A stretch of 12,906 nt of DNA, from the IMG/VR virus record IMGVR_UViG_2541047938_000002, one strand, 5' to 3'. The position numbers and the translations under genes are program-made. Below the pieces are notes generated by a model that worked only from the letters and a program-made list of their open reading frames with translations, did not search any database and was not told where the DNA came from. This document shows, piece by piece, positions 1,054 to 10,286 of this stretch. Origin of the DNA: a virus. Its lineage: Duplodnaviria > Heunggongvirae > Uroviricota > Caudoviricetes. The stretch's first letter is position 1. Each line of letters starts with the position of its first letter.

Positions 1054-1078
1054 AAAAAATGCCCTCCAATAGAGAGCA

Positions 1079-1106
1079 TTTTTACTGTATGTATAACCAG
1101 TGTCAA
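1079..1106 (-). promoter_or_regulatory. Candidate sigma70 promoter for int with an overlapping LexA-like SOS box
   Basis: On the minus strand: -35 TTGACA (1106-1101), 16-bp spacer, -10 TAAAAA (1084-1079), then the int RBS and ATG about 25 bp downstream. The plus-strand 20-mer TACTGTATGTATAACCAGTG (1083-1102) fits CTG-N10-CAG with an AT-rich spacer and sits in the promoter spacer. Confidence 0.4.
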
Positions 1107-1241
1107 TGTATGAAATCCTGCGACCATACATCTCACTGAAGCCATAATGAAGTAGGCTATTCTTTTTGCTATGTGATCATGTAACTTTTGCGGTTAACCT
1201 GTGGCTCATTTTTATTTTAGGCGCAGATATAAAAGCAAAAG

Positions 1242-1433
1242 TTATCGTGAGTTTTTAGTACAGATTTTTTTGGATTTACTAATAGTTCCATCATTGCAAA
1301 CGAATTTGCCATCAGAGGTACAGTGAGAAACACCTCCCTTTTTCCCTGAGCAGGGATAATTTCTAGCATAGGTAGCTAGTGGGTTTAATAACAAAGAACA
1401 TGACAAAACCACAAAAAATACCTTACCAAGCAT
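1242..1433 (-). CDS. Small secreted, cysteine-containing basic protein (63 aa), hypothetical; possible lysogenic-conversion moron
   Basis: ATG 1433-1431 with SD GGGAGG 5 nt upstream, starting 18 nt after the cI stop. N-terminal signal-peptide-like segment [23 protein letters not shown]; predicted mature part about 40 aa with 4 Cys and many Lys. AT-rich by eye. Confidence 0.55.
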
Positions 1434-1448
1434 AATTTCCTCCCGGTA

Positions 1449-3948: not shown

Positions 3949-4802
3949 GCACCATCCTGAAATGGGCGGGAAATAAAACTGCCATAATGTCCGAACTGAA
4001 AAAACATCTTCCTGCTGGCCCGCGACTGGTTGAACCTTTCGCGGGTTCCTGTGCTGTGATGATGGAGACGGATTATCCCAGCTATCTGGTTGCGGATATT
4101 AATCCTGATTTAATCAACCTCTATAAAAAGGTTGCCGCTGATTGTGAATCGTTTATATCTCGCGCCAGAGTTTTATTTGAGAACGCAAACAGGGAGGTGG
4201 CTTATTACAACATAAGGCAGGAGTTTAATTACTCAACTGAAATTACTGATTTCATGAAAGCGGTATATTTCCTGTATCTCAATCGTCACGGTTACCGTGG
4301 TTTATGTCGCTATAACAAGAGCGGGCATTTCAACATTCCCTACGGTAATTATAAAAATCCGTATTTCCCTGAAAAAGAAATTCGCGCATTTGCAGAAAAG
4401 GCCCAGCGAGCAACGTTTATCTGCGCCAGCTTTGATGAAACGCTGGCGATGTTGAAGGCGGGGGATGTGGTGTATTGCGATCCGCCGTATGACGGTACGT
4501 TTTCCGGCTATCACACTGACGGCTTCACTGAAGATGACCAGTATCACCTGGCATCTGTTCTTGAACATCGGTCATCAGAAGGACATCCGGTCATTGTTTC
4601 TAACAGTGACACATCCCTGATCCGTTCGCTGTATCGCAATTTTACTCACCACTACATCAAGGCAAAACGCAGCATCGGTGTGGCAGCTGGCGAGGGTAAA
4701 TCAGCAACAGAAATCATTGCTGTTTCCGGGCCGCGCTGCTGGGTGGGATTTGATTATTCGCGTGGCGTGGATAGTTCTGCCGTGTACGGAGTACGTGCAT
4801 GA
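3945..4802 (+). CDS. dam: DNA adenine methyltransferase, Dam family (285 aa)
   Basis: Track ORF starts at 3885; preferred ATG 3945 ([11 protein letters not shown]) with GGAGG 6 nt upstream. Has the SAM-binding LKWAGNK motif and the catalytic DPPY motif; strong resemblance to E. coli Dam. Confidence 0.9.
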
Positions 4803-6223
4803 GTCATGCCGATATGAACAACTGCTGCGGCTTTAACGAAGCTGCCGCATCGTTCTCATGGAACAGCTCGAAAAAGGCCATTAACCCTTATCTGGACCCG
4901 GTGGAAGTTGCGCCGGTTTCTACGCTTTCAAACCTGATCACTCTGTACGCTGCCGATAACGAGCAGGAACAGCTGCGCCGTGAGGCGCTGAGTGATCAGG
5001 TCTGGGAGCGTTATTTCTTTAATGAATCCCGTGATCCTGTCCAGCGCGAAATGGAACAGGATAAGCTCATTAGTCGGGCAAAGCTGGCGCATGAGCAGCA
5101 GCGTTTTAATCCGGATATGGTCATTCTGGCGGACGTCAACGCCCAGCCTTCCCATATCAGCAAGCCGCTGATGCAACGTATTGAATACTTCAGCAGCCTG
5201 GGCAGGCCAAAGGCTTATTCCCGCTATTTACGTGAGACGATTAAGCCATGTCTGGAACGACTGGAGCATGTACGCGACAGTCAGCTATCTGCATCTTTTC
5301 GCTTTATGGCAAGCCATGAAGGGCTGGACGGCCTGCTGATCCTGCCTGAAATGAGTCAGGATCAGGTGAAACGCCTGTCCACCCTGGTAGCTGCGCATAT
5401 GAGTATGTGCCTTGATGCCGCTTGTGGCGATTTGTATGCCACCGATGACGTTAAGCCAGAAGAAATCCGCAATACATGGGAAAGGGTGGCAGCGGAAACC
5501 CTGCGTCTGGATGTCATCCCGCCTGCGTTTGAGCAACTCCGTCGGAAAAGAAACCGCCGTAAACCCGTGCCCTATGAACTCATTCCGGGTTCGCTGGCGC
5601 GTATGTTGTGCGCCGACTGGTGGTATCGGAAATTATGGAAGATGCGTTGCGAATGGCGGGAAGAGCAGTTGCGTGCTGTCTGCCTTGTCAGCAAAAAAGC
5701 ATCTCCCTATGTCAGCTATGAAGCCGTGTTGCATAAACGTGAGCAGCGCCGTAAGTCGCTGGAGTTTTTCCGTTCTCATGAACTGGTGAACGAAGACGGC
5801 GACACGCTAGACATGGAGGATGTGGTAAACGCCAGCAGCAGCAACCCTGCGCATCGCCGCAATGAGATGATGGCCTGTGTTAAAGGTCTGGAGCTTATCG
5901 CGGAAATGCGCGGTGACTGCGCCGTTTTCTACACCATCACCTGTCCGTCACGTTTCCATTCCACGCTAAATAACGGCAGGCCCAACCCGACCTGGACAAA
6001 TGCGACGGTAAGACAAAGCAGCGATTATCTGGTCGGTATGTTTGCTGCATTTCGTAAGGCGATGCACAAAGCCGGGTTGCGCTGGTATGGCGTGCGGGTG
6101 TCAGTGTGGTGTTCATGGCACAAACCTACAGCCTTGAATGAAGGCTTTCCCCGCCTGCGGTTTGTGTGGTTGTCGGTACAAATACCGCGCATTGTTTCAC
6201 TGCCCCCATCACCGCAACCATAA
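4799..6223 (+). pseudogene. A: Replication initiation endonuclease A (P2 gpA / 186 A family), apparently truncated with a non-homologous tail
   Basis: ATG 4799 overlaps the dam stop (ATGA), GGAG upstream. Resembles the N-terminal ~430 aa of P2-family A (…ITCPSRFH…RWYGVRV). After about 6100 the frame runs 41 unrelated codons to a stop at 6223, and the HUH region I expect next (…EPHHDGT.HWH…) is absent. Confidence 0.65.
6105..6180 (+). promoter_or_regulatory. Late-promoter region with two TGT-N12-ACA (Ogr/Delta-type) activator boxes upstream of O
   Basis: TGT(6105-6107)-N12-ACA(6120-6122) and TGT(6163-6165)-N12-ACA(6178-6180). The second box is centred about 88 bp upstream of the O start codon, consistent with a -55 activator site for a start site near 6226. 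Confidence 0.45.
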
Positions 6224-6258: not shown

Positions 6259-7086
6259 ATGACAGTGAAAGCAAAGCGTTTTCGCATCGGGGTGGAAGGT
6301 GCCACCACCGACGGACGCGAAATCCAGCGTGAATGGCTGGAACAGATGGCAGCCAGCTACAACCCGGCGGTGTATACCGCGCTGATTAACCTTGAGCACA
6401 TCAAGTCTTATCTGCCGGACAGCACCTTTAACCGCTACGGCAAGGTGACGGCGCTGTTTGCTGAAGAAATCACGGAAGGTCCGCTGGCAGGCAAGATGGC
6501 GCTGTATGCCGACGTTGAGCCAACGGAGTCCCTGGTGGAACTGGTGAAAAAAGGCCAGAAATTATTCACCTCTATGGAAGTCAGCCCGAAGTTCGCTGAT
6601 ACGGGCAAAGCCTACCTGGTCGGCCTGGCTGCTACTGATGACCCTGCCAGTCTGGGTACGGAAATGCTGACATTCAGCGCCAGTGCAGCCCATAACCCGC
6701 TGGCAAACCGCAAGCAGAATCCTGCCAATCTCTTTACCGCTGCAGAGGAAACGGTGATCGAACTGGAAGAAATCCAGGACGACAAACCGTCCCTGTTTGC
6801 CCGCGTCACGGCGCTGTTTACCAAAAAAGAGCAGTCCGATGACGCCCGGTTCTCTGATGTGCATAAGGCCGTGGAGCTGGTCGCCACTGAGCAGCAGAAC
6901 CTGAGTGCACGCACCGAAAAATCCCTGTCTGAGCAGGAAGAACGCCTGTCTGAGCTGGAGACTGCCCTGCAGGCACAGCAAACCGCCTTTAACGAACTGG
7001 TGGACAAGCTGAGTCATGAAGACAGTCGCCAGGACTACCGCCAGCGTGCAACAGGCGGTACCTGCATTTTCATAAATACTTTTTAG
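6259..7086 (+). CDS. O: Capsid scaffold protein gpO (275 aa), C-terminal ~9 residues replaced at a deletion junction
   Basis: ATG 6259 with GGAG 8 nt upstream. FRIGVEG…DGR…INLEH…SMEV.P.FA.TGK.YLVGLAATDDPASLGTE… resembles P2 gpO. Similarity is lost after …ATGG (about 7059) and the frame ends TCIFINTF. Confidence 0.8.
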   Translation: MTVKAKRFRIGVEGATTDGREIQREWLEQMAASYNPAVYTALINLEHIKSYLPDSTFNRYGKVTALFAEEITEGPLAGKMALYADVEPTESLVELVKKGQKLFTSMEVSPKFADTGKAYLVGLAATDDPASLGTEMLTFSASAAHNPLANRKQNPANLFTAAEETVIELEEIQDDKPSLFARVTALFTKKEQSDDARFSDVHKAVELVATEQQNLSARTEKSLSEQEERLSELETALQAQQTAFNELVDKLSHEDSRQDYRQRATGGTCIFINTF

Positions 7087-7295
7087 CTCATCAGCGTAGA
7101 ACGCATTTTCTTTTGCAGAATAAAACATATTAATCACCATCCAATCGCGAAAACTCTAAAGCCACCGTAGCCAGCACATGTAATTTGAGTTTTTGTCATA
7201 CCAGTGTAATACGTTCTACCAACAGCCAAATTATATGCAGTTGTAGAACTCAAATCAGCAGCCCCAGTTGATACATCACTAAATAACGGAATCAT
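7060..7295 (-). pseudogene. Remnant of a tail-fibre gene 3' end plus the 5' end of a tail-fibre assembly (Tfa) gene, inverted relative to the other late genes
   Basis: Minus-strand ORF 7295..7134 (…AGYGGFRVFAIGW*) whose TGA overlaps ATG 7140 of a second reading frame, MVINMFYSAKENAFYADELKSIYENAG, in the ATGGTGA arrangement typical of fibre/tfa pairs. That N-terminus matches the conserved start of Tfa proteins as I recall it. The frame becomes antisense O after about 26 codons. Confidence 0.5.
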
Positions 7296-8163
7296 GCACT
7301 CATTTGGGAATGCAATAGGGAAACCCATCACCGCATTTCTCGGTGGCGTGGTGGAAGGATTCAAAGCGGCGGCAGGTCCCATCAGTGCTGCATTCGAACC
7401 ACTTAAGCCTGTGTTTCAGTGGATTGGCGACAAAGTACAGGCGCTGTGGGGCTGGTTTACTGATCTGCTGACGCCCGTTAAGTCGACCTCTGCCGAACTG
7501 CAGAGTGCAGCGGCAATGGGGCGACGATTCGGGGAGGCACTGGCGGAAGGGCTGAATATGGTCATGCATCCGCTGGACTCCCTGAAATCCGGCGTTTCCT
7601 GGTTGCTGGAGAAGCTCGGCATTGTCAGTAAAGAGGCCGCAAAGGCAAAACTGCCGGAAAGCGTGACGCGTCAGCAACCTGCGACGGTGAATGCAGACGG
7701 TAAAGTGATGATGCCATTGGGTGGTTTTCCATCATGGGGATATGGCTTTGCGGGGATGTATGACAGCGGCGGGTATATCCCGCGCGGGCAGTTTGGCATC
7801 GTCGGTGAAAACGGGCCGGAAATTGTTAACGGCCCGGCAAATGTGACCAGCCGGAGAAATACCGCTGCACTGGCTGCCGTTGTTGCCGGAATGATGGGCG
7901 TTGCTGCCGCGCCTGCAGAGCTTCCACCGTTGCACCCTTTGGCACTTCCCGCGAAAGGCGGCGAAGCGATGGTGAGTCGTGCAGCCACTGTGCCGCCCGT
8001 TCAACGGATTGAGGCACCGATGCAGATCATCATTCAGACGCAGCCAGGACAAAGTGCGCAGGATATTGCGCGGGAGGTGGCCCGCCAGCTTGATGAACGT
8101 GAACGCAGGCTGAAAGCAAAAGCCAGGAGTAACTACAGCGATCAGGGGGGATACGACGCATGA
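7294..8163 (+). pseudogene. T: Tail tape-measure protein (gpT family), C-terminal ~289 aa only
   Basis: The frame opens at ATG 7294 exactly at the junction with the inverted fibre fragment. Contains GIVGENGPE and Gly/Ala-rich segments typical of P2-family tape-measure C-termini; these proteins are about 800 aa. Stop overlaps the U start (ATGA). Confidence 0.7.
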
Positions 8164-8645: not shown

Positions 8646-9742
8646 ATTTCAGCTCTGAACTGCTTAACAAAGGCAACAAAACTCCCGCATTCAGCATCAG
8701 TATTGAGGGCAGGGATATCACCACTGTGCTGGATAACCGCCTGATGAGTTTGACGCTGACGGATAACCGGGGCTTTGAAGCGGACCAGCTTGATCTGGAG
8801 CTGGATGACGCTGACGGAAAAATCGTGCTGCCGCGCCGTGGTGCGGTCATTACGCTGGCGCTGGGCTGGAAGGGGCAGCCGCTTTTCCCTAAAGGGGCAT
8901 TCACAGTGGACGAGATTGAACACACTGGCGCACCGGACCGCCTGACTATCCGGGCGCGAAGTGCTGATTTTCGGGAAACGCTGAATACCCGCCGTGAAAA
9001 ATCGTGGCATAAGACCACCGTCGGGGAAGTGGTGAAGGAAATAGCCGCGCGGCACAAGCTGAAGATGGCACTGGGTAAAGACCTGTCGGATAAGCCCGTG
9101 GAGCATATAGACCAGACTAATGAGAGTGACGGCAGTTTTCTGATGCGGCTGGCGAGACAGTACGGTGCCATCGCGTCGGTGAAAAATGGCAATCTGTTAT
9201 TCATCCGGCAGGGGCAGGGCAAAAGCGCCACTGGTAAACCTCTGCCAGTGATCACTATCACACGTAAGGACGGCGACAGTCACCGCTTTACCCTGGCGGA
9301 TCGCGGAGCTTACACGGGTGTAATTGCCAGCTGGTTGCATACCCGCGAACCCGCGAAGAAAGAAAGCACCACGGTGAAGCGTAAGCGCAGGACTAAGAAG
9401 CAGAAGAAAGAGCCGGAAGCGAAGCAGGGCGATTACCTGGTGGGGACGGATGAAAACGTGCTGGTACTTAATCGCACCTATGCTAATCGGAGTAACGCCG
9501 AACGGGCAGCGAAAATGCAGTGGGAACGCCTGCAACGCGGTGTTGCGTCATTCTCGCTACAACTGGCGGAAGGTCGGGCGGATCTCTACACGGAAATGCC
9601 TGTGAAGGTCAGCGGCTTTAAACAGCCGATAGATGATGCGGAATGGACCATTACCACCCTGACACATACCGTCAGCCCGGATAACGGTTTTACGACCAGT
9701 ATGGAGCTTGAAGTGAGGATTGATGATTTCGAAATGGAATGA
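8642..9742 (+). CDS. D: Tail protein gpD / late control protein D (366 aa)
   Basis: GTG 8642 with GGTGGGAGGG SD. Position immediately upstream of ogr and resemblance to P2 gpD. Confidence 0.8.
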   Translation: MNFSSELLNKGNKTPAFSISIEGRDITTVLDNRLMSLTLTDNRGFEADQLDLELDDADGKIVLPRRGAVITLALGWKGQPLFPKGAFTVDEIEHTGAPDRLTIRARSADFRETLNTRREKSWHKTTVGEVVKEIAARHKLKMALGKDLSDKPVEHIDQTNESDGSFLMRLARQYGAIASVKNGNLLFIRQGQGKSATGKPLPVITITRKDGDSHRFTLADRGAYTGVIASWLHTREPAKKESTTVKRKRRTKKQKKEPEAKQGDYLVGTDENVLVLNRTYANRSNAERAAKMQWERLQRGVASFSLQLAEGRADLYTEMPVKVSGFKQPIDDAEWTITTLTHTVSPDNGFTTSMELEVRIDDFEME

Positions 9743-9832
9743 TTCTTCGCAATGGAGAACTTTTAAGTTTGCAAAATGGAATAATACGGTATCATTGTTG
9801 TGAATTTAGCAAAAATGGGGAGAACTCGAAAA

Positions 9833-10051
9833 ATGATGATTTGCCCACTGTGTGGAAGTGCCGCCCATACTCGCAGCAGTTTTCAGGTATCTTCATTGAC
9901 CAAAGAGCGTTACAACCAGTGCCAGAACATTAACTGCAGCCATACTTTTGTTACCCATGAAACTTTTGTTCGTTCGATTGCAACGCCAAAAGAGTCAAAT
10001 CCGGTTCAGCCGCATCCAATGAAATCAGGACAGGTGGCGCTCTCTCTTTGA
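9833..10051 (+). CDS. ogr: Ogr/Delta-family zinc-finger late transcription activator (72 aa)
   Basis: Track ORF 9800..10051; preferred ATG 9833 (MMICPLCGSAAH…) giving 72 aa, as in P2 Ogr. Zinc-finger motif C-x2-C-x22-C-x4-C; GGGGAGA about 10 nt upstream. Confidence 0.9.
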   Translation: MMICPLCGSAAHTRSSFQVSSLTKERYNQCQNINCSHTFVTHETFVRSIATPKESNPVQPHPMKSGQVALSL

Positions 10052-10127: not shown

Positions 10128-10174
10128 CAACAAAAAACCCATCAACCTTGAACCGAAATGGCGGGGTTGATGGG
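10128..10174 (-). terminator. Rho-independent terminator downstream of ybjL (host side of attR)
   Basis: 10-bp GC-rich stem (10138-10147 pairs with 10165-10174), 17-nt loop, then TTTTTTGTTG on the minus strand (plus A-run 10132-10137); 113 nt after the ybjL stop. Confidence 0.55.
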
Positions 10175-10286
10175 CTCCACAAAATGGGGACATCAAAGAA
10201 AAGCAGTGGCACTAATTAAGACTGATGCCCTGCGGAAAAGTTCTGCGGTTGTGCAAAAAAATTTCATTTTCAGGGCAACTTCAGTT

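Follow-up and report, generated by a model that had tools for sequence, protein, structure and literature searches.

A conserved YdcA-family gene follows the cI repressor in a 186-like prophage remnant and encodes a predicted exported mini-protein

P2-like prophages are known to carry variable, lysogen-expressed cargo, including recognised defence genes, at the junction of the repressor gene cI and the integrase gene int (Rousset et al., 2022; preprint 10.64898/2026.02.27.708500), and a hotspot at this junction has already been described in the Vibrio K139-like phages (Rousset et al., 2022). The GenBank record of K139 places glo between cI and int with the annotation 'periplasmic protein; involved in phage exclusion', and Glo is counted among the superinfection-exclusion proteins as a soluble periplasmic one (PMC3952083). 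Small exported morons in lysogeny modules are already familiar. Two further points of comparison are the chromosomal YdcA of Escherichia coli K-12 (b1419), described in the literature as 'predicted to be a periplasmic protein', and Dis2 (Lpg0823) of Legionella pneumophila, a protein of two similar lobes and five disulfides that lies close to the outer membrane as a cap subunit in the core complex of Dot/Icm, a type IV secretion system (T4SS), and contacts DotK, DotC and DotD. Dis2 is dispensable for assembly of that system, and its authors regard it as specific to Legionellales and as having no structural relatives. Here we describe a ydcA-like gene lying between cI and int of a 186-like element in a stretch of 12,906 nucleotides from a tailed virus (IMG/VR record IMGVR_UViG_2541047938_000002), which as a whole is called the window below, and compare it with these systems.

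The ydcA-like coding sequence occupies positions 1242–1433 on the minus strand and comprises 63 codons and a TAA stop, with an ATG start; the call rests on the list of open reading frames (ORFs), NCBIfam, PHROGs, RefSeq and PF27300. On its upstream side, and on the same strand, lies the 186-type cI repressor gene (1449–2024, with the RefSeq start at 2018; PF07022 at 2.8e-33, PF16452 at 2.7e-27; 'phage repressor protein CI' in RefSeq) as the preceding cistron of the same leftward operon, and downstream, again on the minus strand, lies the tyrosine integrase gene int (1–1053, 350 amino acids by the RefSeq start; PF24624 and PF00589; WP_000290937.1). The cI stop codon, TAG, stands at 1449–1451, and the spacer between the two genes is 15 nt long (1434–1448, TACCGGGAGGAAATT). 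Within it a Shine-Dalgarno sequence, GGGAGG (1439–1444, minus strand), can be read directly 5 nt 5' of the ATG, and a sequence scan of the spacer returned neither a promoter nor a terminator. The ORF has a GC content of 0.359 (0.30 at third codon positions), lower than that of cI (0.401), of int (0.484) and of the window as a whole (0.498). The original prediction, made from the letters alone, had described an AT-rich 63-codon frame with a strong Shine-Dalgarno sequence behind cI, and every one of these descriptive elements is confirmed. Its distance of 18 nt from the cI stop included the three bases of the stop codon itself; the closeness stands and the true spacer is 15 nt. Its placing of the ORF behind cI on one shared transcript, as a second cistron, agrees with the short spacer, with the empty scan and with Haemophilus phage HP2, where the start of the gene overlaps the cI stop. 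It had also noted that phage 186 has no such gene between cI and int, and this is indeed the case, for there the two genes (cI 22433–23011, int 21423–22433) overlap by 1 base.

The product very probably belongs to the YdcA family and is exported. It is 100% identical to RefSeq WP_001513672.1, annotated 'YdcA family protein' or 'hypothetical protein', and reaches 114.6 bits, above the cut-off of 93, with the NCBIfam equivalog NF007463 (PRK10040.1-2), the prophage sub-model, covering model positions 1–58 of 58, while with the chromosomal sub-model NF007462 it obtains 68.5 bits and stays under the cut-off of 118. It further matches phrog_6000 (3e-34), and an identical protein (P0001), the representative of a cluster of 355 members on at least 1000 contigs, bears the precomputed label Pfam PF27300 (YdcA). 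The local Pfam-A release, which is older than PF27300, gave no significant match for the ORF, its sole match being GULLO2-like_3rd at E 0.076. Searched with the family profile, 1.84 billion cluster representatives yielded 470 family clusters (50% identity) at E <= 0.001. The small secreted family that had been suspected but could not be named is thereby identified as YdcA (PF27300/PRK10040). Both gene and family are already catalogued, and the ORF is not new as an entity. Two other names attached to such genes were set aside: the UniRef label 'Conjugal transfer protein' finds no support in the window and perhaps goes back to genes found beside it on plasmids, for instance a traD-like gene, and the 'ydcA' of the Neisseria gonococcal genetic island and that of Bacillus are, to judge from the titles of the papers concerned, unrelated genes of the same name.

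Selection on the two parts of the protein differs. In unsaturated pairs of prophage alleles the ratio of non-synonymous to synonymous substitution rates (omega) is 0.02–0.05 for the mature domain, whereas the signal peptide changes freely yet stays hydrophobic (omega 0.15–1). Compared with a diverged E. coli allele (P0013), the mature domain has 20 synonymous and 4 non-synonymous differences, and between immunity types the synonymous sites are saturated with the mature protein nearly unchanged. By these substitution counts, purifying selection on the mature domain is strong. Of 5426 complete E. coli genomes, 627 (~12%) contain the ORF at 80% coverage or more, among them ATCC 8739 and the E. 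coli B strain C3029, and a wider region of 1101 nt matches a BL21 derivative at 96.1%. The family occurs in 493 IMG/VR stretches; both alleles among the best 80 of these loci are intact, and these 80 are near-identical E. coli copies only, which add no diversity. In a megablast search of the cultured phage genomes with the region, the 5' end of int was found in Klebsiella phages and nothing else matched, and the gene is absent from every Escherichia phage record of these genomes.

It could be supposed that the ORF is a chance frame, or a pseudogene in decay, within a defective prophage's AT-rich spacer. In favour of this are its shortness and its AT-richness, and the window element is, as read from its gene content, a deletion remnant and not a complete prophage, one that can no longer make phage. 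The conservation nevertheless refutes this explanation and leaves it practically no chance: the curated hidden Markov model (HMM) is matched above its cut-off, the family spans hundreds of clusters, omega is very low and the gene is intact throughout the E. coli genomes counted above. In the remnant itself the gene has remained intact despite the deletions, and the cI-ydcA-int block is found also in complete prophages of other genomes. The ORF behind cI is a genuine and strongly conserved gene.

The export signal is of a standard kind. Residues 1–23 (1365–1433, minus strand) form a predicted signal peptide with cleavage by signal peptidase I after Ala23, a prediction based on the hydrophobic core and the -3/-1 rule. 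The n-region holds K4, the core consists of 13 hydrophobic residues with a mean Kyte-Doolittle value of 2.37, P18 lies in the c-region, T-Y-A occupies positions -3 to -1, and a helix is predicted over residues 3–15. All 33 homologues aligned have Ala at -1, and all 33 have A, S, T or V at -3. The mature YdcA domain of 40 residues (1245–1364, minus strand), which is supported by the conserved columns, omega, an AlphaFold2 model and the match to Dis2, has four cysteines (C28, C38, C46 and C58), an isoelectric point of 9.7 and a net charge of about +6.8, and contains the four-Cys motif PCSGxKGG[VI]xHC..F[VI]CxDGxxSxSKKxC. C38, F44, C46, D48, G49, S52, S54 and K55 are invariant in the family alignment and C28, C58 and H37 are conserved in at least 90%; the AlphaFold2 model shows a beta-hairpin with a predicted local distance difference test score (pLDDT) of 78–90. 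The signal-peptide-like N-terminus and the basic, four-Cys mature part of some 40 residues that the original prediction had read are therefore upheld by the invariant A-x-A type site and the isoelectric point. The weak lipobox that it had allowed as an alternative in the VLSC segment does not hold, as VLSC carries Leu at position -2 and Cys12 lacks conservation across the family. A lipoprotein of the Cor/Llp type (lipobox [LVI][ASTVI][GAS]C) was accordingly rejected: Cys12 is limited to close relatives, in which it is preceded by F, I or V, and most members lack it.

The position of the gene recurs well beyond this element. Whenever ydcA is present in the slot between cI and int it is the first gene after cI and always on the cI strand, and the cI-ydcA spacer measures -1 to 49 nt in nine of ten arrangements from E. 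coli, Klebsiella, Hafnia, Yersinia and Haemophilus HP2. It is 15–49 nt in the E. coli, Klebsiella, Hafnia and Yersinia prophages, which have different cI alleles; in the Haemophilus phages HP2 and S2 an ATGA overlap joins the gene, unannotated there, to the cI stop, and the exception is Buttiauxella with a spacer of 409 nt. This regular pairing across prophages of Enterobacterales and Haemophilus was not found in the literature searched. Homology breakpoints at ~1112–1117, where the same int occurs with other immunity regions, indicate that ydcA moves together with the cI immunity module; the cI-ydcA pair is found also with a KAP nucleoside triphosphatase (NTPase) gene inserted before int. In prophages of E. 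coli and Klebsiella this KAP-family P-loop NTPase (PADLOC candidate PDC-S20, distantly PifA-like) often separates int from ydcA or from cI, and the order cI-ydcA-KAP-int recurs (KAP at L004 3135–4466, L005 1642–2973 and L010/L014 6198–7529).

The junction was surveyed further in 80 186-like loci from different species (L025–L104), which were fetched through the conserved cII, since the cI alignment is too diverged to serve as seed for a genome scan, and in which cI, int and YdcA were located with HMMs. Both cI and int were found in 70 loci; in 35 of these cI abuts int as in 186, the other 35 have 0.1–2.9 kb inserted, and the inserted ORFs of at least 50 amino acids, where found, are nearly always on the cI strand. 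YdcA is carried by 3 of the 80 loci. Other cargo of the slot includes PD-Lambda-1 (4e-120), KAP NTPase/PDC-S20 (4e-82), PDC-M11A (2e-134), a TIR-like effector and a Swt1-type HEPN protein, as well as several small proteins with signal-peptide or lipoprotein-like N-termini, for example DUF2511. The junction is therefore a slot for cargo and defence genes in which YdcA is a minority occupant, and this supports the view that the gene is a moron. The presence or absence of the ORF in related prophages, put forward as a check by the original prediction, is answered by the same counts, and the proposal of a moron acquired after the core phage can be kept in part: the gene is accessory cargo, missing from 186 and from most of the loci, but the wording needs nuance in that the gene travels with the immunity module and occupies a general cargo slot. 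As in the P2-like hotspots already described, the cargo at this junction is variable, expressed in the lysogen and partly composed of recognised defence genes; the window YdcA differs from these in being a 63-residue exported protein and not a cytoplasmic enzyme system, nor is it a recognised defence gene.

What the protein might do for the lysogen can be pictured as follows. The ORF would be translated in the lysogen from the leftward (pL-type) cI transcript, an expectation that derives from the spacer and strand of the cI-ydcA pair. Sec would export the product, cleavage would follow after Ala23 and the four Cys would form two disulfides, which would leave in the periplasm a cationic mini-protein of ~4.3 kDa that binds a component of the envelope at the periplasmic face of the outer membrane. 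The envelope site is suggested by the homology to Dis2 described below. There it could serve as a lysogenic-conversion factor that brings about superinfection exclusion at an early step after adsorption, either tail-tip penetration or the passage of DNA through the periplasm. Such exclusion at the level of the envelope is our tentative preference, a possibility that falls somewhat short of being probable, and it is preferred because defence genes share the slot (often with the KAP NTPase adjacent), because the gene is retained in a dead remnant, and because Glo of K139 offers a positional analogue; the recurrence of the family on other mobile elements counts in its favour too. Like the window gene, glo belongs to a P2-related phage, sits in the cI-int slot of the lysogenic operon and encodes a small soluble periplasmic product with a signal peptide. 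Unlike it, Glo has 137 residues, the order in K139 is cI-orf2-glo-int with orf2 between cI and glo, and exclusion is annotated for Glo only.

Several points weigh against exclusion. Homology to Glo was considered and rejected, given an hhalign probability of 3.4% and an alignment of the signal peptides only, so that the two are related by analogy and not by membership in one family. Exclusion would be a function for which no YdcA-family protein has an experimental phenotype, and both the transcription from pL and the periplasmic location of the product are predicted. In PADLOC-DB 2.0 no family matched the window protein at E <= 0.001, although the slot cargo of other prophages did find matches there. 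Homologues in Moraxella and Acinetobacter phages lie in head-tail gene clusters and not in the lysogeny operon, and deletion of dis2, whose product is compared with YdcA below, has subtle effects only. Finally, the chromosomal paralogue in E. coli and the core copies elsewhere point to a housekeeping role in the envelope.

The last of these points opens onto a different account, in which the prophage gene is host-fitness cargo, an extra constitutive copy of a housekeeping periplasmic envelope-stress protein that contributes to tolerance of acid, organic acids or stationary phase and has no anti-phage role. The E. coli K-12 protein shares with the window protein a signal peptide followed by a domain of ~35–40 residues with four Cys (PCSGxKGG[VI]xHC...F[VI]CNDGxxSxSKKxC), and the mature parts, and above all the motif, are nearly unchanged between them, though the two proteins are 57% identical overall and the window copy is more basic and has another signal peptide. 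Their settings differ as well, K-12 ydcA lying between cybB/rydC and hokB, and the window copy lying on a 186-like remnant as the cistron after cI. E. coli W became sensitive to 3-hydroxypropionate at 300 mM when ydcA was deleted, and acid-induced expression is cited in that work (PMC7642389); the same phenotype was suppressed by deletion of yieP, without a mechanism (PMC7642389), which lessens its force. The host-fitness account is further favoured by a site for the RpoS holoenzyme found by systematic evolution of ligands by exponential enrichment (SELEX) in the rydC-ydcA spacer, the up-regulation of ydcA at entry into stationary phase, and the core chromosomal copies of other bacteria, which adjoin dsbC/hom. 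The host, however, already has the gene, and the recurrence of YdcA on prophages, small plasmids and a T4SS and in the company of defence genes fits a function centred on the element better. We consider the host-fitness account rather unlikely.

Of the solved structures, one alone matches the protein significantly, namely Dis2, chain AN of 7MUC/7MUD. The E-values are 3.2e-5 for the full-length protein by phmmer, 4.5e-5 for the family profile and 2.2e-4 for the mature 40 residues alone. Both lobes of Dis2 align with the YdcA domain, with the Cys, the GG and VCN(D/N)G in register, and Dis2 is also the top match in Foldseek (prob 0.98 and 0.80, TMq 0.62). The YdcA domain is thus probably homologous to each Dis2 lobe, and a relationship between YdcA and Dis2 was not found in the literature searched. 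The likeness extends to the signal peptide and to a small, disulfide-rich product. It does not extend to the architecture, since Dis2 has two tandem lobes and five disulfides and the window protein has one domain and four mature Cys, nor to the surroundings: Dis2 is found in a genome with a Dot/Icm-type type IVB secretion system, and the window and the related prophage loci hold phage and host genes only. The window protein is a single-lobe relative of Dis2 and not a Dis2 orthologue.

The domain occurs in yet further contexts. Core chromosomal copies in other bacteria lie near dsbC/hom, and the domain stands directly after the signal peptide of proteins with SNase (two), Endonuclease_NS (three, one of them a fragment recognised by eye) and PLD-family PLDc_2 (one) domains; it is also found at that same place in a VasL-domain protein, with low-complexity tails and as two or three tandem copies, and variants occur with a C-terminal C-x-C...C-x-GP[RK]GG-x-[YF]C motif. 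The proteins with these fusions, repeats and motifs are P0121, P0227, P0182, P0183, P0202, P0185 and P0118, together with P0056–P0062, P0113, P0170 and P0217. Fusions of the YdcA domain to nucleases were not found in the literature searched. On plasmids, the Acinetobacter pittii MOBQ plasmid pApiMCR53a (NZ_CP139254.1), of 3.9 kb and five annotated genes, has a YdcA-family gene (L109 728–904) directly after a traD-like gene, and further YdcA-family genes are found on other small plasmids of Acinetobacter and Psychrobacter and on Rhizobium megaplasmids.

The company of nucleases raises the idea of a periplasmic module for handling DNA, whose basic domain binds DNA or docks a nuclease or a DNA-translocating machine, so that the prophage protein traps incoming phage, plasmid or transforming DNA in the periplasm or exposes it there. 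Besides the nuclease and PLD-family fusions and the tandem copies, this idea can draw on the net charge of about +7 on 40 residues, on Dis2 being part of a T4SS that translocates DNA and protein, on the gene following a traD-like gene on a MOBQ plasmid, and on the phage copies in the naturally competent Haemophilus, Moraxella and Acinetobacter. Against this, no nuclease gene is adjacent in any of the prophages examined, Dis2 contacts proteins and not DNA in the cryo-electron microscopy structure, and the VasL and low-complexity fusion partners imply that the domain may simply be an envelope anchor. DNA handling as such is consequently an improbable reading. A broader proposal would make the YdcA domain a mobile module of the periplasm, widely distributed, with docking sites on outer-membrane-associated machinery or on incoming DNA, with the prophage copy, made together with the repressor, as a new soluble periplasmic factor for exclusion or for blocking DNA entry and Dis2 as a duplicated descendant of the family recruited to a T4SS; we put this forward as a speculation that is doubtful at present.

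It is also conceivable that the lysogen releases the protein as a secreted antimicrobial or inhibitor, that is, as a cationic, disulfide-rich toxin of the bacteriocin kind or as an inhibitor of periplasmic proteases. The product is small and cationic and has four Cys, and weak matches to plant PIN-II proteinase inhibitors were seen at E 0.07–0.8. These matches are not significant, and the similarity was rejected; PIN-II inhibitors have an eight-Cys pattern, unlike the ydcA-like product. None of the adjacent genes is one for immunity, processing or export, many bacteria have core chromosomal copies, the homologous domain is a structural subunit of a T4SS, and nothing in the analysis favours a toxin, so that this account appears very improbable.

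The region downstream of ydcA bears on where the unit that it would form with cI might end. From the ydcA stop to the int ATG there are 188 nt. An AT-rich structured spacer follows the stop (1084–1241, minus strand), of which the left ~60 nt are common to int genes with other upstream cargo; a long imperfect hairpin comes directly after the stop (~1177–1250), the fold of 1040–1260 has z = -5.27 relative to shuffles, and in the alignment the int-proximal ~95 nt of the spacer are kept whatever the upstream cargo. Rfam recognises no known RNA in the spacer, its only match in the window being the host RybB (10129–10207). A putative sigma-70-like int promoter lies at 1078–1106 on the minus strand, with -35 TTGACA, 17 nt and -10 AAAAAT (10/12 in the promoter scan), 25 nt upstream of the int ATG. 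Within the promoter spacer is a LexA-box-like palindrome, CACTGGTTATACATACAGTA (1083–1102, minus strand; 16/20 to the consensus), which is unique in the window and turned up in 0 of 300 shuffles. The same box stands before int in seven other loci (L004, L005, L014, L017, L019, L105 and L106), and the scan also picks up the p95 LexA site annotated in 186. This suggests that expression of int is under SOS control in cargo-bearing 186-like prophages; an SOS-box promoter before int was not found in the literature searched.

A hairpin of 13 bp, AAAAAUGCUCUCU-AUU-GGAGGGCAUUUUU, followed by a U-run (1055–1083, minus strand), ends at the int AUG, buries the int Shine-Dalgarno sequence GGAGGG and is conserved in the alignment; it does not figure among the hits of the consensus terminator scan. 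Read-through from cI-ydcA would meet this terminator-like, Shine-Dalgarno-masking hairpin, and transcripts from the SOS-type promoter would start inside it and escape. If so, cI-ydcA would be the constitutive unit of the lysogen and int would be controlled separately, and we infer that the int promoter marks the downstream limit of the cI-ydcA unit.

The remainder of the window shows the nature of the element. To the right of cI this 186-like element has apl, cII, fil, DUF5347, DUF2732, a TraR/DksA-like gene and a Dam methylase gene. The replication gene A stops after ~434 aligned residues (4799–6223), and is followed by a scaffold gene (6259–7086) and a tape-measure fragment (7294–8163), with gpU and gpD next. 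An unannotated ORF of 64 residues (9739–9933) has no Pfam or PHROGs match, and related genomes annotate an ogr/Delta-like gene at this place. The gene for the small RNA RybB of the host lies on the minus strand, and the host genes ybjL, ybjM and grxA follow.

Overall, YdcA is a 'y-gene' family of no known function, yet it is found on the 186-like prophages of about one in eight E. coli genomes, on other phages, on small plasmids and in a secretion system. The prophage copy provides a simple handle on what these proteins do, as it has 63 codons, is presumably co-expressed with the repressor and occupies a slot that otherwise holds anti-phage genes. Should it prove to be a stress-tolerance gene instead, it would be an ordinary fitness moron. 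If it does exclude phages or block the entry of DNA from the periplasm, a very small and soluble class would be added to the exclusion factors, and the finding would offer a clue to what chromosomal YdcA and Dis2 do.

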